DNA of 64,000 nucleotides, taken from the sequence record ON286972; one strand, 5' to 3'. A program made the position numbers and the translations under genes. Below, in pieces: positions 2,530-13,440 of the stretch. Below the pieces are notes generated by a model. It was given only the letters and a program-made list of their open reading frames with translations. It made no database searches and had not been told where the DNA came from. Each line of letters begins with the position of its first letter. Position 1 is the stretch's first letter. The DNA is from Escherichia phage A4.

Positions 2530-2755
2530 TAAACTACTTAAAAATATTGCAGTACGCTTGTTGGATGGTTTTGTTGATACAGTGAAACTACTATTCAGTA
2601 CTGCAATGAGCATTTTAGTAATATTGATGTTCGCATTAGTATTACATTTTGTACCAGTATGGATTGTAATTACTGCAATTGTCGTTCTACTTATCATCAT
2701 CTCGTACTTCACATATCGTGAAGATTTGCAAGAGTTGCTTGATAAAGATGACTAA
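2522..2755 (+). CDS. small membrane protein, holin-like topology
   Basis: 77 aa, two hydrophobic helices and a highly charged C-terminus (REDLQELLDKDD). Confidence 0.4.
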   Translation: MVDKLLKNIAVRLLDGFVDTVKLLFSTAMSILVILMFALVLHFVPVWIVITAIVVLLIIISYFTYREDLQELLDKDD

Positions 2756-2763
2756 AACTTTAT

Positions 2764-2790
2764 ATTCCTCACTATGTGGGGAATATTTTT
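2764..2790 (+). terminator. rho-independent terminator
   Basis: ATTCCTCAC / GTGGGGAAT stem (one G-U), 3-nt loop, ATTTTT tail. Confidence 0.5.
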
Positions 2791-2801
2791 AAGGTAATAT
2801 T

Positions 2802-3263
2802 ATGATTAATCGTGAAATATTGCAATGCTTGTATCGTTTGGTTGATGTTTGTAAAGATACTAATCTATTGAAAATGGATTTTTATGAACACAAAGCTAAT
2901 ATATTAGCTGAAATTCTTGGATATACAAATCCTCAATTCCGATACTATGACGGTGCGATGTTTAGTGCATTTGATGGTAATTATTCAGTCCAATGCGTAG
3001 CACAAGAGTTATTTTATGTGTGGGATGACACAACGAATTGTCAGGTTATGATCGAAGTTAGATATCCAGATGGGAGTAATACACCAATGGGTGAATATAA
3101 TAGATTAGATACATTTTATGCATTACAACCATCCACACCTACACCTGTTCCATATCCTAATATTGAATCTGAAATTATCCATTATGAGATGATTCAGAAA
3201 TGTAAATCACTCTCAACTTATGATGAGATATATTTTCCATTAGTTTTTATAGGATCTAAATGA
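2802..3263 (+). CDS. hypothetical protein
   Basis: 153-aa ORF after a terminator hairpin. Confidence 0.5.
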   Translation: MINREILQCLYRLVDVCKDTNLLKMDFYEHKANILAEILGYTNPQFRYYDGAMFSAFDGNYSVQCVAQELFYVWDDTTNCQVMIEVRYPDGSNTPMGEYNRLDTFYALQPSTPTPVPYPNIESEIIHYEMIQKCKSLSTYDEIYFPLVFIGSK

Positions 3264-3646
3264 TGAGATGGAAAAAGAGACATACTAAACGATTTACTGA
3301 GATCGTCAAAAAGTATTATAATTCTAAAGATAGTTTTGCATCTATGTTGTATGAAAGTATTACACCTAGACGTTATCCACAATGCTATGTTAATGTAAGA
3401 AACAAAAGTAAGAACCGATATACAGTAGAGTTATATGGGGAAGGTACTACATTTCTTGGGACTCGTATTTCAGTACCTTCTTACCTGTACTCACGAGTTA
3501 AACGCAGTCGTGTTCAGGGTGTACTAGTCGGATATCAAATGTTGTCCATTGATGAAGTTAATGATAAGCTCACACGAAACTTTTCTTACACAGATTTCGA
3601 AATTCATGATATAATCTTAGATATCTTATCAGATTTGGGGAATTGA
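3260..3646 (+). CDS. hypothetical protein
   Basis: 128-aa ORF overlapping the previous stop. Confidence 0.5.
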   Translation: MMRWKKRHTKRFTEIVKKYYNSKDSFASMLYESITPRRYPQCYVNVRNKSKNRYTVELYGEGTTFLGTRISVPSYLYSRVKRSRVQGVLVGYQMLSIDEVNDKLTRNFSYTDFEIHDIILDILSDLGN

Positions 3647-3695
3647 CCGTGGTATACGTAGAAGTCTTTATGTTTGATGTTAAAAAAGGAAAAAA

Positions 3696-3830
3696 ATGAT
3701 GAAAGGATTAAAGAAATTTGGATCGGATTTTGTTAAGTGTATTCGCTACACTTATGATGCAAATCCAGAAATGACCGCCATTGTCGGTGTGTTTATTACA
3801 TTAGTTGTGTTAAGCTTTGTAGTGGTGTAA
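3696..3830 (+). CDS. small membrane peptide (44 aa)
   Basis: ATG-initiated ORF with a C-terminal hydrophobic helix, fills an intergenic gap. Confidence 0.3.
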   Translation: MMKGLKKFGSDFVKCIRYTYDANPEMTAIVGVFITLVVLSFVVV

Positions 3831-3833
3831 AAT

Positions 3834-4037
3834 ATGATTGAAATTAATGCTGATATATATTGTAGTGCATCACCCAATTACTTCATTTATGCACTAAGTA
3901 CATTTGGTGAAACTGAAGGTGAAACTTTTGTTTTAGTAGATAATACTACATGGTACAAAACAAGTAATAAAATTCCAAAAGATGTTTTGGAAACATATGT
4001 TCGTATTGAAAATAAAAACATATATGTACATTTATAG
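3834..4037 (+). CDS. hypothetical protein
   Basis: 67-aa ORF. Confidence 0.4.
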   Translation: MIEINADIYCSASPNYFIYALSTFGETEGETFVLVDNTTWYKTSNKIPKDVLETYVRIENKNIYVHL

Positions 4038-5643: not shown

Positions 5644-5976
5644 ATGCTAAATCTAGTTATTCAAGGTAATGTTGATATTACTCCAGCAATCCATGACGCA
5701 ATTCATCAAGAAGCAAACACTCTAAATAAATTTAGTGATTCTTCAGTACTGAATATTGGTGTTCATGTGAAAAAAGAGCATAAGACACAGTACGCAGTAA
5801 CTTTAACATCAGGTGGTAAGTCTGTTACTGCCGATGATGCAGATTTATACAAGGCGATTGTCGATTCATTCGAAAAAATGGAAACTGTATTCAGTAAAGA
5901 CAAAAGCATTAAATTGCACCGCCGAAACCATCCAGACCGTCCAGTTGTAGTTGATGTAACTGACGAAGAAGAGTAA
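5644..5976 (+). CDS. hpf: ribosome hibernation promoting factor (HPF/YfiA family) homolog
   Basis: 110 aa; N-terminus MLNLVIQGNVDITPAIHDAI parallels E. coli HPF MQLNITGNNVEITEALREFV; similar length and overall pattern. Confidence 0.75.
   Translation: MLNLVIQGNVDITPAIHDAIHQEANTLNKFSDSSVLNIGVHVKKEHKTQYAVTLTSGGKSVTADDADLYKAIVDSFEKMETVFSKDKSIKLHRRNHPDRPVVVDVTDEEE
5742..5753. repeat. 12-bp palindrome TTCAGTACTGAA
   Basis: Inside hpf, in the S-S-V-L-N frame. Confidence 0.8.
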
Positions 5977-6476: not shown

Positions 6477-6662
6477 ATGGAATATACAATAGGTGCAATA
6501 GTATGTATCGCAGCATTATTAGGTGGCATTGGTGTGATGATTTACTTTGATGCAGAACCCAGTACTGAAATGGGTACAACCCTGGAACTCAAACCTGGCA
6601 TTAAGGTGAACGACTCTTACTGTTACGATCCACATAGTAATAAGTATGTGATTTGTTTATGA
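6477..6662 (+). CDS. small membrane protein
   Basis: 61 aa, N-terminal hydrophobic helix, GGAGG RBS. Confidence 0.4.
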   Translation: MEYTIGAIVCIAALLGGIGVMIYFDAEPSTEMGTTLELKPGIKVNDSYCYDPHSNKYVICL

Positions 6663-7069
6663 AAAAGTTTAATATTAAACCGATATTTGATGCTATCGAA
6701 ATTAAATTGAAAGACCAACGAAAACCCGATGGTACTGGTTTATTCTTTAGTTTAGATAGAACCTACGTTGAAACACATGTATCAAGTTTTGATAGAACTG
6801 GTAATCTTTTCATCCGTTCATATAACATGTTTTATAGTGAAGATGTTTTTATGATAGATATCACTTTAGATGAAAGTATAGGTTTGATGTACATTGAAGA
6901 TGTTCAATCAAACGATCAACGAAACGGCACACTTCCTATTGGTGCTACCGAGGAAGAGTTTATGCAATATCAGTTCATTGATGATACCTTTGGTATTGAC
7001 TTTGTGACATATCAGAGTATAATGCGTGTATACGAACAGTATGAGGATTACGTAATTGGACGTTACTAA
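6659..7069 (+). CDS. hypothetical protein (paralog A of a tandem pair)
   Basis: ATG at 6659 overlapping the preceding stop (track starts at TTG 6653); C-terminus homologous to the next gene (QYQFIDDTFGIDF vs QYMFIDDTFSIDY). Confidence 0.55.
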   Translation: MKKFNIKPIFDAIEIKLKDQRKPDGTGLFFSLDRTYVETHVSSFDRTGNLFIRSYNMFYSEDVFMIDITLDESIGLMYIEDVQSNDQRNGTLPIGATEEEFMQYQFIDDTFGIDFVTYQSIMRVYEQYEDYVIGRY

Positions 7070-7478
7070 AATACCCAAATTCAACGAAACGTTAAAGTAC
7101 TTTTCTGAACAAGAGTTCAGTACTGAAAGACGTGGTTTAGTCACATACAACCAATATCGCGTAATGTATACTAACCAGTTACAAGGAACAGTACGTATTA
7201 AAATCCGTAATGCATATGATGATGGTGATGAATTATTAATTATACTAAGAAAAAGTAAGATAGAACTACAATACCATAGATTTGATACTTCCGATGAGTT
7301 TGCATGGAATGTGTTAGAAAAGAAAGTAGGTTCATTGCCTGTAGTTGATGATGGACCTGAAACACTTGATCAGTACATGTTCATTGATGATACATTTAGT
7401 ATTGACTATTCTTCATTTCAGTATATACTATCTATACATAAACAATATGAATCCCGCTTGCGTGACAGATTAATTTAA
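7056..7478 (+). CDS. hypothetical protein (paralog B of a tandem pair)
   Basis: TTG start with GAGGA upstream; C-terminal similarity to the preceding gene. Confidence 0.5.
   Translation: MDVTKIPKFNETLKYFSEQEFSTERRGLVTYNQYRVMYTNQLQGTVRIKIRNAYDDGDELLIILRKSKIELQYHRFDTSDEFAWNVLEKKVGSLPVVDDGPETLDQYMFIDDTFSIDYSSFQYILSIHKQYESRLRDRLI
7116..7127. repeat. 12-bp palindrome TTCAGTACTGAA
   Basis: Inside a CDS, in the F-S-T-E frame. Confidence 0.8.
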
Positions 7479-7621: not shown

Positions 7622-8689
7622 ATGTATAAATTTTATTTTAATGAAAATAACGAGAAGGTATATTTCCATGAAGAATTAGGTATGCGTTTCGAATGGATGC
7701 GTCCCGAAGATTTATCACCAAAATTAATTAAAACATCAAAAACACCTAAAGAACATTTTGATGAAATAATAGAAAAAGGATATAATATTTTAGGATTTGC
7801 TATAACATCAAGTGATGAATGGAAATCTAGTTTTACAAGAACTGTTGTTGAAAAAGATGGTATTATATATACAAAAAGAAATATAAATGATATAAAAACG
7901 AAAGGTATGAAATATATCATTGGGAAATATGACAATGAAAATTATAGATATTATCTTTATAAGACTTCAAAAAGTCTAATGACTGGTGAATGTGAATTAC
8001 TTTTAGAACAACCAATAATTAAAGATAAAAGAACCAAATTAACTTATAAATGCTTAAAATGTGGTCACGTTGATGAAATGGAAATTAGTAATATACAAAG
8101 TGGTCAGGGTTGCTCTATTTGTCGATTTGAAAAAACCAGATTAGCACACGCATTCACCACCGCTGAATTTGTTGAACGAGCAAAAGAAATTCATGGTAAT
8201 GTATATAACTATTCAAAAGTCATCTACATTAATAGTAGCACTCATGTTGAAATAATTTGTAAAAAACATAATAATTCTTTTTATATCATTCCAAATTTTC
8301 ATATAGCAAAAAATAAAAATCAAGGTTGCCCAATATGCTCATCTGAACATACTGAATCCAGAGCTAGTAGAGAAATAACACGTTTTTTAATTGAAAATGG
8401 TATAAAATTTAATAAAGAACAAACATTTAGTGACTGTAAAAATAAAATGTTATTAAGATTTGATTTTTATTTGGTTGATTATGATATTTGTATTGAGTAT
8501 GATGGTAAACAACATTTTGAGAAATCACCTCATTGGGGTGGAGAAGATAAATTGAAAAACATCAAGGATAACGATACTATAAAGACACAATATTGTGAAA
8601 AGAATTTTATTAAATTAATACGTGTAACATATTATGAAGACCACTTAACTGTATTAAAAAAACATCTTTCAGAGGAAGGTATATTATGA
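7622..8689 (+). CDS. putative free-standing endonuclease (zinc-ribbon Cys pairs plus C-terminal PD-(D/E)xK Vsr/DUF559-like core)
   Basis: Several CxxC pairs (CLKCGH, GCSICR, GCPICS); C-terminal FDFYLVDYDICIEYDGKQHF...IKLIRV resembles the endonuclease core of Vsr/DUF559-type nucleases. Confidence 0.5.
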   Translation: MYKFYFNENNEKVYFHEELGMRFEWMRPEDLSPKLIKTSKTPKEHFDEIIEKGYNILGFAITSSDEWKSSFTRTVVEKDGIIYTKRNINDIKTKGMKYIIGKYDNENYRYYLYKTSKSLMTGECELLLEQPIIKDKRTKLTYKCLKCGHVDEMEISNIQSGQGCSICRFEKTRLAHAFTTAEFVERAKEIHGNVYNYSKVIYINSSTHVEIICKKHNNSFYIIPNFHIAKNKNQGCPICSSEHTESRASREITRFLIENGIKFNKEQTFSDCKNKMLLRFDFYLVDYDICIEYDGKQHFEKSPHWGGEDKLKNIKDNDTIKTQYCEKNFIKLIRVTYYEDHLTVLKKHLSEEGIL

Positions 8690-9798
8690 AAAAGTATTTG
8701 GTGGGCGGCTATGTGAGGGACCGTTTAATGGGTATTCGTACAAAAGACAAAGATTATGTCATTGTCGGTGCTACCGAATCCGATATTAAGTACTTACAAA
8801 GTATTGGCTATAAGCAAGTAGGTAAGGATTTTCCCGTGTATCTAAGTCCAGAGGGTAATGAGCACGCATTGGCCCGTACCGAACGTAAAACTGGTACTGG
8901 TTACGGTGGCTTCGAAGTGAATACTAAAGGCGTGACACTAGAGCAAGATCTATACAGAAGGGATATTACGGTAAATAGCATAGCGTATGATCCAGTACTG
9001 CAAATTCACATCGACCCATACGGTGGTAAAGCTGATATCAAGAATAAAGTACTACGCCATGTATCCGAGCACTTCAAAGAAGATCCATTACGTGTATTAC
9101 GTCTAGCTCGCTTTGCTACGCGTTATTCTGATTTCTCTATACACGAGACTACTGAAGCACTTGCAATCGATATGGTAGCGTCTGGTGAGCTAAATCACCT
9201 TGTTCCAGACCGTGTTTATGTTGAATTTGAAAAAGCACTGTCAGAAGAAAAGCCAGCTAAGTTCCTTAAAACACTAAGTAAGTTGGGTTACTATGAAAAA
9301 GCATTTAATGCAACATTAACCAAAAAGTCATTGGAACTCATTGATCATATCTCTGATAATTGTACTGAAGCATATAAGCCATATTTCTTATGGTCTGTGC
9401 TTCTTGAGAAAGAAGAAGTTGGTGAGGATTCAGTACTGAATGGTGCTATTAAAATGCCCGTTAAGTACGTTAAATTCAGTAATTACATCAAACGTTTCCG
9501 TGATGATATCAAGGCATTCCGTAAAAAGACCCCAAATGAAATGGGACAATTATTACTGGATATGAATATCAAGAATAACGGCGGTGAAGAATTCCTTTAC
9601 AAAGTACTGGAATATTTTATTCTACGTAAAGAGATTGATTTAGACCTTGAAGATTTAATCATTAAGGTATATGATCGTTACACTGATGTAGTACTTCCAG
9701 ATATTCAACAACTGGTAAAAGACGGTGAGTTAGAAGCATCTGAAATCCGTGATTTTGTTTCAGATTTACGTTGTGAAGCAATTCAACAAATGTTTTAA
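8686..9798 (+). CDS. cca: CCA-adding tRNA nucleotidyltransferase
   Basis: LVGGYVRD motif, DFPVYLSPEGNEHALARTERK matching E. coli Cca, RRDITVNS motif; 370 aa without the C-terminal HD domain. Confidence 0.9.
   Translation: MKKYLVGGYVRDRLMGIRTKDKDYVIVGATESDIKYLQSIGYKQVGKDFPVYLSPEGNEHALARTERKTGTGYGGFEVNTKGVTLEQDLYRRDITVNSIAYDPVLQIHIDPYGGKADIKNKVLRHVSEHFKEDPLRVLRLARFATRYSDFSIHETTEALAIDMVASGELNHLVPDRVYVEFEKALSEEKPAKFLKTLSKLGYYEKAFNATLTKKSLELIDHISDNCTEAYKPYFLWSVLLEKEEVGEDSVLNGAIKMPVKYVKFSNYIKRFRDDIKAFRKKTPNEMGQLLLDMNIKNNGGEEFLYKVLEYFILRKEIDLDLEDLIIKVYDRYTDVVLPDIQQLVKDGELEASEIRDFVSDLRCEAIQQMF
9429..9440. repeat. 12-bp palindrome TTCAGTACTGAA (14-bp ATTCAGTACTGAAT)
   Basis: Inside cca, in the D-S-V-L-N frame. 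Confidence 0.8.
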
Positions 9799-9884: not shown

Positions 9885-10301
9885 GTGGCATTATATTTTA
9901 TCGTGATGGTCAGATACTTGTTGGACACACAACACGGACAGAAGCATTGGGATTTACCAAAAGGTAAAACCGAGGGCAATGAAACATTTGCTGAAGCTGC
10001 TGTTCGTGAGTGCTATGAAGAAACAGGATTTGAGATTGATGAAAAGGATCTTCTCTTATTAGGTGATGTATCATACAGGAAAGGGAAAAGATTAGTTTTA
10101 TTTTTCTATACAGCTAAATACAAACCCGAACCGGATGAACTGAAGTGTAACAGTACTTATACCAATCGATATGGTAAAAGCCATCCAGAATTGGATAAAT
10201 TCATGTACATTGATGTTCAAGATTGTCAAAAGTATTTGACCGAACGAATGTGTAACAGTATAATTAAAGCTGTTAAATTGTTTCAAAAAAATAAAGGATA
10301 G
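9885..10301 (+). CDS. NUDIX hydrolase, apparently frameshifted (N-terminal strand encoded in another frame from ATG 9872)
   Basis: Nudix box GKTEGNETFAEAAVRECYEETGFE; track ORF begins at GTG 9885, while ATG 9872 opens a 31-codon frame (MRYSCGIIFYRDGQILVGHTT...) that looks like the missing N-terminus. Confidence 0.55.
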   Translation: MALYFIVMVRYLLDTQHGQKHWDLPKGKTEGNETFAEAAVRECYEETGFEIDEKDLLLLGDVSYRKGKRLVLFFYTAKYKPEPDELKCNSTYTNRYGKSHPELDKFMYIDVQDCQKYLTERMCNSIIKAVKLFQKNKG

Positions 10302-10305
10302 TTAT

Positions 10306-10554
10306 ATGAAAGTGAAAATTTATGGTCGCACGACTGGTTGTAATTTCTGTGATACAGCAAAAGCAATTTGTGAGAACAATTCATTTGAAATGGATTTTAT
10401 CGATGTGGTTTCTGAAGGTATTGATGGTGCTAAACTATCAGAAATTTGCGGTGAGCCAGTTCGTCAAGTTCCACAAATTTTCGTAAATGATGAGTATGTT
10501 CCTGGTGGATGTACTGGTTTTGTTAACGGGCTAAAAGAAGGTCGCTGGAACTAA
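10306..10554 (+). CDS. nrdC: glutaredoxin/thioredoxin-like protein (T4 NrdC-like)
   Basis: 82 aa, CNFC redox motif near the N-terminus, PQIFVNDEYVPGG resembling the glutaredoxin cis-Pro region. Confidence 0.8.
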   Translation: MKVKIYGRTTGCNFCDTAKAICENNSFEMDFIDVVSEGIDGAKLSEICGEPVRQVPQIFVNDEYVPGGCTGFVNGLKEGRWN

Positions 10555-11097: not shown

Positions 11098-11130
11098 AAA
11101 GGACTTGAGATTATCGAGTCCTTTTCTTTT
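11098..11130 (+). terminator. rho-independent terminator
   Basis: GGACTTGA / TCGAGTCC stem (one G-U), 5-nt loop, TTTTCTTTT tail. Confidence 0.55.
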
Positions 11131-11140
11131 CGGAGAACAC

Positions 11141-11617
11141 ATGATACATGAACATCACGGAAATCTGTTTGAATTATTCAGTACTGTAACTGATGATCAT
11201 ACTGCATTACATATTATAGCTCATGGTTGTAATGCTCAAGGTAAAATGGGTTCTGGTTTTGCAAAAGAACTCAGAATGCAGTACCCAAAGGCATATGATG
11301 ATTATAAAGAATATGAAAAGAGAATGGGTTTTCTAAGAACCGGACAAATTGCATATTCAGCAATTAATGATGATTTGATTATCGCAAACTGCATTACTCA
11401 AAAATGGTACGGAACTGATGGTGCAAAATACGTAAGCTATGATGCCATTGATGACGTTTTCATGCATTTGAATTTTTTCTGTAAAATTGAACGAAATGTT
11501 CATGTACACTTTCCGAAAATTGGAGCCGATTTGGGCGGTGGTAACTGGAACGTTATCAAAGAAATCATTGACCACAGGCTGGTTAATGCTGAAAAACATT
11601 TATATATTCTCAAATAA
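11141..11617 (+). CDS. macro domain protein (OARD1/TARG1-like, Macro_2 type)
   Basis: LHIIAHGCNAQGKMGSGFAKEL and HFPKIGADLGGGNW parallel TARG1 LAHCISEDCRMGAGIAVLF and MPRIGCGLDRLQW; ATG 11141 follows a terminator hairpin (track TTG start 11105 lies inside the hairpin). Confidence 0.7.
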   Translation: MIHEHHGNLFELFSTVTDDHTALHIIAHGCNAQGKMGSGFAKELRMQYPKAYDDYKEYEKRMGFLRTGQIAYSAINDDLIIANCITQKWYGTDGAKYVSYDAIDDVFMHLNFFCKIERNVHVHFPKIGADLGGGNWNVIKEIIDHRLVNAEKHLYILK

Positions 11618-12598: not shown

Positions 12599-13390
12599 AT
12601 GTCATATGACTATATGGGTGGAAATCCAGATGCCCCAAATTACGATCACCGTGAAAAATTAAAAGATGTGATTACACAAATGTTGGGTGCTGGTGCTGTT
12701 GAAGTTGAAATTACTGATGGACAATTAGAAATCGCAATCGATAATGCGGTATCAAACTACAGAGCATGGAGTTCTGCATCAAAAGAAGAAGCTTTTTTAA
12801 GCATGAAATTCTATGATTCTCAATCAGTTTACATGCTACCAACTGAAGTAGAAATTGTTAAGAAAATTTATCGTTATGGTAATGGTTATTTGAGTTCTGG
12901 TAGTGGTAACTCGGTTGACCCATTTTCAATTGCATTTACAAACACATATCTACTAACGTCTGCTCGCAACGCTGGTGGTTATGATTTAACAACCTATGAC
13001 TTCAGTTTCCAGTTTCAGGAATTAGTAGGTCGTATGTTTGGACGTGAGATTATTTTCCAGTTTAATCCCATGACTAAGAAACTGGTTATTGACCGTGATA
13101 TTCGCGGCACAGAAGAAGTACTGGTTCATGTGTATCATAACATCCCAGAACCACTACTATTCCAACGTCAAATGAGTTATCCGTGGCTTCGTGATTGGGC
13201 TTTATCGGAAGCGATGATTATGTTAGGTCGCAACCGTGCTAAGTTTGCTTCTTTGCCTGGACCACAAGGAACATTTTCAATGGATGGTGATACACTTCGT
13301 AATGAAGGTATGCAACTCCAGGAACAACTTAAAGAACAGTTGAAGAGATACAAAGATGGTGGTGAACCACTTGGTATGATTATTGGTTAA
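12599..13390 (+). CDS. hypothetical protein, possibly virion/tail-associated
   Basis: 263-aa ORF upstream of the dNMP kinase and tail sheath genes; followed by a strong terminator. Confidence 0.5.
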   Translation: MSYDYMGGNPDAPNYDHREKLKDVITQMLGAGAVEVEITDGQLEIAIDNAVSNYRAWSSASKEEAFLSMKFYDSQSVYMLPTEVEIVKKIYRYGNGYLSSGSGNSVDPFSIAFTNTYLLTSARNAGGYDLTTYDFSFQFQELVGRMFGREIIFQFNPMTKKLVIDRDIRGTEEVLVHVYHNIPEPLLFQRQMSYPWLRDWALSEAMIMLGRNRAKFASLPGPQGTFSMDGDTLRNEGMQLQEQLKEQLKRYKDGGEPLGMIIG

Positions 13391-13400
13391 AATAAAAAAA

Positions 13401-13425
13401 AGACTCCATGTTGGGGTCTTTTTTC
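13401..13425 (+). terminator. rho-independent terminator
   Basis: AGACTCCA / TGGGGTCT stem, 3-nt loop, TTTTTT tail. Confidence 0.6.
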
Positions 13426-13440
13426 ATATACGGTGATATA

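Follow-up and report, generated by a model that had tools for sequence, protein, structure and literature searches.

All tRNA genes of Escherichia coli encode the 3'-terminal CCA, and the cca gene of this host serves repair alone (PMC6468291). In class II nucleotidyltransferases adding the terminal A depends on a flexible loop of 10-12 amino acids between motifs A and B, and an EDxxR motif forms the amino-acid template that selects CTP or ATP; E. coli Cca with a G70A or Y71A change in the loop is impaired in making the full CCA (PMC2532741). Structures have been solved for class II enzymes that lack HD activity, from T. maritima (3H37/3H38/5HC9), B. stearothermophilus (1MIV) and human mitochondria (4X4W/8CBM). 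A survey of jumbo phages found CCA-adding enzymes to be common in groups 2/3 (PMC7824862), and papers on Asteriusvirus list 7 tRNAs plus a tRNA nucleotidyltransferase gene (PMC11895373). The gene described here is already known, both as PHROG 2244 and as a tRNA nucleotidyltransferase in RefSeq 121Q and many relatives, and is covered by the genome papers and the survey. Its phage orthologs (121Q gp539 YP_009102126, UE-S1, PBECO4, Sharanji WNN14700.1 and GAP32 among them) come from Rak2-like jumbo phages of Escherichia, Klebsiella, Cronobacter, Erwinia, Salmonella and Xanthomonas. In the literature searched we found neither experimental work on PHROG 2244 or the Rak2-like cca orthologs nor a biochemical assay of any phage Cca, and it appears that no CCA-adding enzyme encoded by a phage has been characterised biochemically.

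The window analysed here, a stretch of 64,000 nucleotides from Escherichia phage A4 (ON286972), is under a fifth of the ~350-kb genome of an Asteriusvirus (121Q/PBECO4/TH47-like) jumbo coliphage, and its gene order follows that of TH47 collinearly between 343.1 and 278.0 kb, in descending coordinates. The features of the cca locus are collected in Table 1.

Table 1. Features of the cca locus, in positions of the window; residues are those of the cca product
Feature	Positions	Strand	Residues	Remarks
cca, class II tRNA nucleotidyltransferase (CCA-adding enzyme), HD-less	8686..9798	+	1-370	ORF of 370 aa
Motif A GGYVRD and catalytic carboxylates D21-K-D23	8704..8754	+	7-12; 21-23	G7, G8, R11, D12 and D23 invariant, D21 nearly so (alignment, 43 homologs)
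Flexible loop R67-F76 (RKTGTGYGGF)	8884..8913	+	67-76	corresponds to E. coli R65-F74
Motif B RRD	8956..8964	+	91-93	R91, R92, D93 invariant in 43 homologs
Motif C			110-117	
Motif D EDPLR	9079..9093	+	132-136	E132, D133, P134, R136 invariant in 43 homologs
Motif E			176-183	
C-terminal helical half	9301..9798	+	206-370	all-helical at high pLDDT
Conserved island NNGGEEFLY	9574-9600	+	297-305	inside the C-terminal half
Homing endonuclease, free-standing	7622..8689	+		355 aa; PHROG 559 'HNH endonuclease', E=8.7e-51
NUDIX hydrolase	9906..10301 (alternative GTG start 9885)	+		Pfam NUDIX E=2.2e-12; PHROG 1185 E=1.5e-46
Glutaredoxin	10306..10554	+		Pfam Glutaredoxin E=4.2e-9; syntenic in relatives

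Family placement and catalytic motifs

A sequence-only reading of the window had called the cca product a class II tRNA nucleotidyltransferase and had itself proposed profile searches against other nucleotidyltransferase subfamilies. These upheld the assignment, as the NCBIfam CCA models scored 270, 229, 207 and 207 bits, against 88.9 bits (cut-off 305.65) and 48.3 bits (cut-off 702) for the PcnB models TIGR01942 and NF008634 and 64.3 bits (cut-off 1440) for the A-adding model NF041569. The match to PHROG 2244 (tRNA nucleotidyltransferase) extends over the full length of the protein (E=2.4e-112, 377 bits; residues 1-369 on profile positions 3-387 of 392), and Pfam found PF01743 (PolyA_pol head) and PF12627 (PolyA_pol_RNAbd) and nothing else. 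The 270.5-bit alignment to PRK10885 covers residues 1-202 of the model's 409. No NCBIfam equivalog's curated cut-off is reached, that of E. coli-type Cca (NF008137/PRK10885, 451 bits) included, because half of each model alone matches; an HD-bearing control protein (P0117) scored 615.5 bits over the full length of the E. coli-type model. On these comparisons of sequence, 8686..9798 is a real gene of the class II CCA-adding enzyme family whose product would be enzymatically active, and the putative catalytic head and neck (residues 1-205) are closely related to those of gammaproteobacterial Cca, the head being 54-58% identical to bona fide, HD-bearing Cca homologs.

The GGYVRD and RRD motifs pointed out in the sequence-only reading lie at the residues given in Table 1, and ARTERK at residues 63-68. 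Within the flexible loop R67, K68, G72, Y73 and F76 are invariant across the alignment of 43 homologs, and the pLDDT of the predicted model falls to 74 at residues 71-80, which fits a flexible loop. The phage protein shares motifs A-E and the head and neck with E. coli Cca (PRK10885/NF008137), whose loop reads RKSGSGYTGF, and the catalytic residues of the E. coli enzyme, D21 and D23, stand at the same positions in both proteins (PMC6468291). E. coli PcnB has the Pol-beta class II head fold and EDxxR in common with the phage protein, but the latter scores far lower on PcnB profiles, and its loop is of the Cca type. Moreover, the PcnB-model alignments begin at model positions 32 and 63, whereas in the phage protein motif A is preceded by 6 residues, so that a PcnB-like N-terminal extension is absent.

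The C-terminal half lacks the HD module

The HD phosphohydrolase module of E. coli-type Cca is missing from the phage protein, as had been read from the sequence. Its C-terminal 176 aa match no Pfam family at E<=10, PF01966 (HD) included, while the control, a bacterial homolog that has the HD domain, gave HD at E=2.5e-9. The C-half holds 1 His and no HD dipeptide, and in the alignment to bacterial homologs the phage protein has gaps at the HHPE-D, HDLGK and GHE positions; relative to E. coli Cca about 40 residues, with the HD ligands, are deleted. A degenerate HD domain was considered and rejected on the missing Pfam signal, the deleted ligand positions and the single His. The C-half, which is unrelated in sequence to that of E. 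coli Cca and 7-14% identical to the C-halves of bacterial Cca proteins, is a helical region specific to this phage clade that stands in place of the HD-containing region. The label 'multifunctional CCA protein' carried by some phage records is an over-annotation, and it is wrong for this clade because the HD module is absent.

The AlphaFold2 model of the cca product (pLDDT 92.9, pTM 0.86) superposes end to end in Foldseek on 3H38, 1MIV, 4X4W and 5HC9 (TM 0.63-0.73, about 390-400 columns), its C-half lying on the C-half of the solved enzymes, and 3H38, 1MIV and 4WC2 give TM 0.65-0.73. On the predicted structure the full-length class II architecture, with a helical C-terminal region behind the catalytic head, is therefore present. 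An enzyme truncated of its C-terminal half was also considered; this reading fails, since the superposition is full length and a TMq of up to 0.73 is impossible with the N-half alone aligned. The solved class II enzymes without HD activity have the same catalytic motifs and predicted overall architecture as the phage protein, although overall identity to them is 20-23% and the phage protein, at 370 aa, is shorter than their ~390-440 aa.

The divergence of the C-half bears on what the enzyme makes. The C-terminal region of class II enzymes influences whether CCA or poly(A) is the product (PMC2532741), and Foldseek also returns the A-adding enzyme of A. aeolicus (TM 0.65) and E. coli PAP (TM 0.61), so an altered specificity could be envisaged, in which the protein is a poly(A) polymerase, adds A only or CC only, or acts on RNAs other than tRNA. 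We consider such a change very unlikely, given the gap between the Cca and the PcnB and A-adding profile scores, the lack of the PcnB-like extension and the identity of the head to bona fide Cca. CC-adding enzymes have lost the flexible loop through deletion (PMC2532741), whereas that of the phage protein is full length and Cca-like with its G-Y intact. One half of a split CC/A pair is likewise disfavoured, since tblastn (E<=1e-5) found a single cca site in each listed Asteriusvirus record and there is therefore no second homolog to complete such a pair. The exact product would presumably be CCA, although the C-half has 7-14% identity to characterised enzymes.

Gene neighbourhood and selection

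A nuclease-like gene and a NUDIX gene had been noted directly upstream and downstream of cca, and both were recovered (Table 1). The upstream gene is a homing endonuclease that also matches PHROG 9084 and 7140 and Pfam DUF4379 and DUF723, with a zinc-ribbon/treble-clef region and a nuclease domain. The end of its reading frame and the start codon of cca overlap in ATGA, and its GC content is 26%, against 36% for the window. Among the relatives compared it is found in this genome and TH47 alone and is absent from 121Q, UE-S1, PBECO4 and others; at the insertion site 121Q reads ...GAATAA C ATG-cca. As a functional partner of cca it was rejected, being a lineage-specific, low-GC insertion that is missing in most relatives. 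The cca ORF is intact despite the insertion, and a Shine-Dalgarno-like GAGGAAGG is kept 5' of its ATG.

The Asteriusvirus orthologs have the same length and 85-89% identity and share the order small ORF, cca, NUDIX, glutaredoxin, from which this genome and TH47 differ by the homing endonuclease directly 5' of cca. The NUDIX gene is conserved downstream of cca, being syntenic in 121Q and E9.1, and is called at 131 aa on a contig with an identical cca protein. That cca protein occurs unchanged on ENA ERZ14213602 NODE_2 (187,944 bp) and on one more contig of the 0.2-1 Mb size class. Promoter-like sites between 6000 and 12500 show no excess (33 found, 34.2 expected from shuffling), and the sole plus-strand terminator-like site in that interval lies at 11098-11124.

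Since host Cca could in principle do the same job, and the 5' end of the gene is the site of a homing-endonuclease insertion, cca might be thought a dispensable passenger or a decaying gene with no role in infection. This we regard as scarcely credible. Against 121Q, dN/dS is 0.069 overall, 0.060 for the N-half and 0.078 for the C-half at a dS of about 1 (valid comparisons were 121Q and the TH47 N-half, the TH47 C-half being left out for a 3-nt indel), so that purifying selection on cca, its C-half included, is strong. Across the Rak2-like jumbo phages the gene has full-length orthologs (48-89% identity) in which none of the catalytic residues varies, and the intact ORF with its retained Shine-Dalgarno-like sequence also speaks against decay.

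tRNA genes and the proposed role

No tRNA gene had been seen in the window by the sequence-only reading, and neither ARAGORN (0 genes) nor an Rfam scan at the gathering threshold (no match to any family) found one there. This is a windowing artefact rather than a biological oddity, because the window covers a fraction of a ~350-kb genome, and relatives carry their tRNAs in a different region. The same reading had offered phage tRNAs encoded elsewhere as a substrate, and the relatives bear this out. TH47 has 5 tRNA genes (160.0-165.1 kb) and UE-S1 has 7 (61.5-68.8 kb, with cca at 239.5 kb), in each case clustered within about 5-7 kb, some 170 kb from cca and >110 kb beyond the equivalent of the window. 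A similar cluster is probably present in this exact phage genome, judging from these relatives (77-89% nucleotide identity).

Many of the clustered genes do not encode CCA. In TH47 this holds for four of five, namely Thr (U-CAA), Asn (G-CAA), Arg (A-UAA) and Met (A-CAA), Ser being the only one with an encoded CCA, and in UE-S1 for three of seven (Gly, T-TAA; Ser-ACT, G-CAA; Thr, A-CAA), the other four encoding it. For TH47, ARAGORN at default settings gives 4 tRNAs and Rfam at its gathering threshold misses the long-arm tRNA-Ser; the fifth, intron-containing tRNA was called through ARAGORN -i, an Rfam group I intron match and manual reading. The TH47 set has the further oddities of G-U-rich acceptor stems and an intron within tRNA-Met. 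As these genes lack an encoded CCA, its addition is needed for their maturation, unlike for any E. coli tRNA.

We therefore favour as the likely reading that cca encodes an active CCA-adding enzyme of a 121Q-like jumbo phage that mainly completes the phage's own tRNAs. During infection the enzyme would most likely add C, C and A, template-free, to tRNA 3' ends, with the EDxxR pocket choosing the nucleotide, the flexible loop switching from C to A addition, and the C-half probably holding the tRNA, by analogy with the solved class II enzymes. Its main job would probably be the finishing of phage tRNAs, many of them without an encoded CCA and encoded ~170 kb away in relatives, for which it may have a preference. 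A secondary job would be to keep the 3' ends of host and phage tRNAs intact against exonucleolytic end turnover, and the phage would then be independent of the amount of host Cca. Phage T4 makes tRNA precursors without CCA that the host enzyme completes, and T4 is not known to carry a cca gene. Host Cca could also finish the CCA-less tRNAs of the present phages, so the phage gene is probably helpful rather than strictly required.

A role in counter-defence or repair would call for the same enzyme chemistry and is compatible with phage-tRNA maturation, which would then be secondary to the rebuilding of host and phage tRNA 3' ends removed or blocked by defence, toxins or phage-induced RNA decay. 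The jumbo-phage survey places CCA-adding enzymes under RNA repair in biological conflicts (PMC7824862), and abortive-infection toxins of the AbiE/MenT type target the tRNA 3'-CCA end (PMC7725324). Damage of the MenT type, however, is an added nucleotide, for which the remedy is an exonuclease and not a CCA-adder. In E. coli Cca the 2',3'-cyclic phosphodiesterase and phosphatase activities reportedly reside in the HD module; with this end-healing module absent, the phage enzyme alone could not use phosphate-bearing ends, which weakens the counter-defence reading somewhat. Furthermore, the PHROG-annotated relative E9.1 has no gene for an RNA ligase, PNK or end healing in the +/-20 kb around cca, and our literature search on anti-phage nucleases specific for tRNA 3' ends found none linked to these phages. 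That repair is the main function thus seems unlikely to us.

With the gene itself already known, what is new here is the CCA-less status of four of the five tRNA genes of TH47 and three of the seven of UE-S1. The discovery value is small and the gains are modest, consisting of a corrected mislabel and a rationale for the presence of cca, since 3-4 of the 5-7 tRNA genes in relatives are CCA-less while none are in the host. Beyond phage-tRNA maturation as such, a more speculative and rather improbable proposal is that the C-half evolved to favour the odd, CCA-less tRNAs of the phage, or to restore ends hit by CCA-directed defence toxins. If either were true, the phage Cca would be more than a plain duplicate of the host repair enzyme, serving as a dedicated part of a self-sufficient phage module for translation or counter-defence.

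The cca gene and the family of its product

The open reading frame taken in the sequence-only reading for a class II CCA-adding enzyme is genuine, and all three motifs named there (GGYVRD, ARTERK and RRD) were found in its 370-residue product, together with further class II elements of Cca (see table) and catalytic carboxylates (D21 and D23) at the E. coli Cca positions (PMC6468291). The profile scores do not place the protein in a poly(A) polymerase or other non-CCA subfamily: CCA-type NCBIfam models scored 270, 229, 207 and 207 bits, against 89 and 48 bits for two models of PcnB (E. coli poly(A) polymerase I) and 64 bits for an A-adding model, and PHROG 2244 (tRNA nucleotidyltransferase) matched end to end (residues 1-369, E=2.4e-112).

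In E. coli Cca, addition of the terminal A depends on a flexible loop (R65-F74) between motifs A and B, in which the mutations G70A and Y71A impair complete CCA synthesis and which was removed by deletion in CC-adding enzymes (PMC2532741). The phage Cca reads RKTGTGYGGF where E. coli Cca reads RKSGSGYTGF, and loop residues R67, K68, G72, Y73 and F76 are invariant across a 43-sequence homolog alignment spanning 37-89% identity. Since tblastn (E<=1e-5) finds a Cca homolog at one place per listed Asteriusvirus record, these sequences make a split pair of CC-adding and A-adding enzymes unlikely. The product is thus a genuine and unexceptional tRNA nucleotidyltransferase of a phage, whose CCA-adding activity we infer. 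RefSeq relatives already carry this annotation and the family has an entry as PHROG 2244; no biochemical work on any phage Cca was found in the searchable literature. In the relative E9.1, a second gene annotated 'nucleotidyltransferase' (410 aa) precedes cca by ~17 kb, outside the window, and is not a Cca homolog (tblastn E<=1e-5).

Features of the cca region and of the compared relatives (window positions unless a record, locus or residue range is named)
Feature	Position	Strand	Remark
HPF/RaiA (S30AE) homolog	5644-5976	+	2.7 kb upstream of cca
ORF, first of pair	6653-7069	+	~140 aa
ORF, second of pair	7056-7478	+	~140 aa
Homing endonuclease	7622-8689	+	355 aa
cca	8686-9798	+	370 aa
GGYVRD	aa 7-12		Cca motif
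D-x-D	D21-x-D23		class II element
ARTERK	aa 63-68		Cca motif
RRD	aa 91-93		Cca motif
Motif C, DPYGGKAD	aa 110-117		class II element
EDPLR template	aa 132-136		class II element
Motif E	aa 176-183		class II element
NUDIX hydrolase	9906-10301	+
Glutaredoxin	10306-10554	+
Macro-domain ('Appr-1-p processing') protein	11105-11617	+	Pfam Macro E=0.005, below cut-off
TH47 tRNA-Met(CAU)	MT446416.1 162478-162173	-	L005 (TH47 locus) 13119-13432
UE-S1 tRNA-like gene	L010 (UE-S1 locus) 10421-10495	+	unannotated; ARAGORN 'SeC|Met'
E9.1 'nucleotidyltransferase'	L011 (E9.1 locus) 2654-3886

The C-terminal half of the enzyme

All NCBIfam CCA models match within residues 1 to ~205 only, and the phage Cca therefore falls below every NCBIfam equivalog cut-off, while an HD-bearing bacterial control (P0117) passes PRK10885, the model of E. 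coli-type Cca, at 615 bits. The absence of the C-terminal HD phosphohydrolase module, also proposed from sequence, is borne out: deletions in the phage clade coincide with the HHPE-D, HDLGK and GHE ligand sites of HD-bearing homologs, a Pfam search of the C-terminal 176 residues gave no match even at E<=10 (the control HD domain was found at 2.5e-9), and the C-terminal half, with a single histidine, lacks any HD dipeptide. The label 'multifunctional' is wrong for the Cca of this clade. Identity to bacterial Cca is only 7-14% in this half, compared with 54-58% in the N-terminal half.

A truncated enzyme is ruled out by a confident AlphaFold2 model (pLDDT 92.9, pTM 0.86; input, the 43-sequence alignment), all-helical beyond residue 128, which Foldseek superposed on full-length class II enzymes over ~390-400 columns, namely those of T. 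maritima (3H38, TMq 0.73), B. stearothermophilus (1MIV, 0.65) and human mitochondria (4X4W/8CBM, 0.63-0.68), the A. aeolicus A-adding enzyme (4WC2, 0.65) and E. coli poly(A) polymerase (3AQL, 0.61). A TMq of 0.73 is unreachable with the N-terminal half alone, so the C-terminal half corresponds to that of the solved enzymes; as modelled, it is a clade-specific helical region superposing on their C-terminal halves and, by analogy, probably binds tRNA. The dN/dS values against 121Q (0.060 for the N-terminal and 0.078 for the C-terminal half; dS ~1) show strong purifying selection on both halves.

Neighbours of cca

The nuclease-like gene reported directly upstream matches PHROG 559 'HNH endonuclease' (E=8.7e-51), homing-endonuclease PHROGs including 9084, and Pfam domains (DUF4379 and DUF723) that include a treble-clef zinc finger. 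It is a clean insertion of ~1.07 kb, placed precisely between the points where a 40-aa ORF stops and cca starts; in 121Q the ORF end (...GAATAA) is followed by one base and the cca ATG, and here the endonuclease stop overlaps the cca start (ATGA). The gene is a free-standing mobile homing endonuclease, and a partnership with Cca was rejected given its low GC content (26% vs 36% for the window) and its occurrence in TH47 alone among the relatives compared. Copies of weak similarity to it (70-73% along 100-230 nt) lie elsewhere in these relatives.

Directly downstream, the expected NUDIX gene is present and is followed by glutaredoxin, two small ORFs and a weak macro-domain protein, a conserved run in which an ADP-ribose or nucleotide-metabolism theme is possible. 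The upstream homolog of the ribosome hibernation factor HPF/RaiA scored 34.8 bits against TIGR00741, just under the 40.9 cut-off, has a precomputed Pfam S30AE match on an identical contig and is annotated HPF/RaiA in 121Q. Two adjacent ORFs resemble tandem paralogs with a common C-terminal pattern (...QYQFIDDTFGIDFVTYQSIMRVYEQYE vs ...QYMFIDDTFSIDYSSFQYILSIHKQYE), and neither has a Pfam match. Promoter-like sites near cca were not above chance, and no operon is therefore claimed.

tRNA genes of relatives and the role of the enzyme

ARAGORN found no tRNA or tmRNA within the 64-kb window, as first noticed, and a gathering-threshold Rfam scan matched no RNA family there. The region shares 82-89% DNA identity with Asteriusvirus jumbo coliphages of 310-373 kb (TH47, UE-S1, PBECO4, 121Q) and is collinear with TH47 (343.1 to 278.0 kb), and the identical Cca protein occurs in the same gene order in metagenome/SRA assemblies. 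At such genome sizes the window is less than one fifth of the genome; what seemed intriguing, a CCA-adding enzyme without tRNA genes, dissolves as a windowing artefact.

The tRNAs do lie elsewhere in relatives. In a whole-genome scan of TH47, the interval 160.0-165.1 kb yielded tRNA-Thr, Asn, Ser and Arg, and with tRNA-Met(CAU) as a fifth gene they form a cluster ~170 kb from cca and >110 kb past the window end. In UE-S1, where Cca is 89% identical, the annotation places seven tRNAs at 61.5-68.8 kb, whereas cca lies at 239.5 kb, and Sharanji has seven tRNAs and a cca labelled 'multifunctional CCA protein' (PMC11895373). The TH47 tRNA-Met is split in its anticodon loop by a ~230-nt group I intron (RF00028, 100.5 bits), is miscalled tRNA-Arg(acg) by ARAGORN -i, gives the loop CUCAUAA once its exons are rejoined, and has an HNH-like ORF downstream; the UE-S1 tRNA-Met is without intron. 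Although TH47 and UE-S1 belong to one genus, their cassettes (UE-S1, L010 7927-15199) are strongly unlike (5 vs 7 genes), HNH endonuclease genes are scattered among them, and tRNAs of the same anticodon differ in sequence and CCA-encoding status, which suggests frequent cassette exchange. In the UE-S1 tRNA-like gene the anticodon loop (tcat) has 8 nt and the T stem is weak; this may be a pseudogene or, alternatively, a tRNA resembling frameshift suppressors.

Judged from the 3' flanks of these genes in the two relatives TH47 and UE-S1, CCA is absent from many of the phage tRNA genes: Thr (U-CAA), Asn (G-CAA), Arg (A-UAA) and Met (A-CAA) in TH47, where Ser encodes it, and Gly (T-TAA), Ser-ACT (G-CAA) and Thr (A-CAA) in UE-S1, where Ser-TGA, Arg, Met and Asn do. 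The sets differ and CCA addition is needed in both, which supports the servicing of phage tRNAs first proposed for the enzyme. Host Cca could complete these tRNAs too; in T4, the host enzyme does so. In E. coli, by contrast, no tRNA gene lacks CCA, and the host cca serves in repair without being essential (PMC6468291).

That the phage Cca serves primarily in tRNA 3'-end repair and counter-defence is compatible with this role and, as the main function, improbable: a jumbo-phage survey places CCA-adding enzymes among RNA-repair functions (PMC7824862) and the 3'-CCA end is a target of AbiE/MenT toxins (PMC7725324), but MenT-type lesions call for trimming rather than addition. Moreover, no RNA ligase/PNK genes lie within +/-20 kb in the PHROG-annotated E9.1, and the phage Cca is missing the HD module. 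In E. coli Cca, end healing is an activity of this module. On the most economical reading, the phage Cca would complete CCA-less phage tRNAs, with 3'-end repair as a backup during infection.
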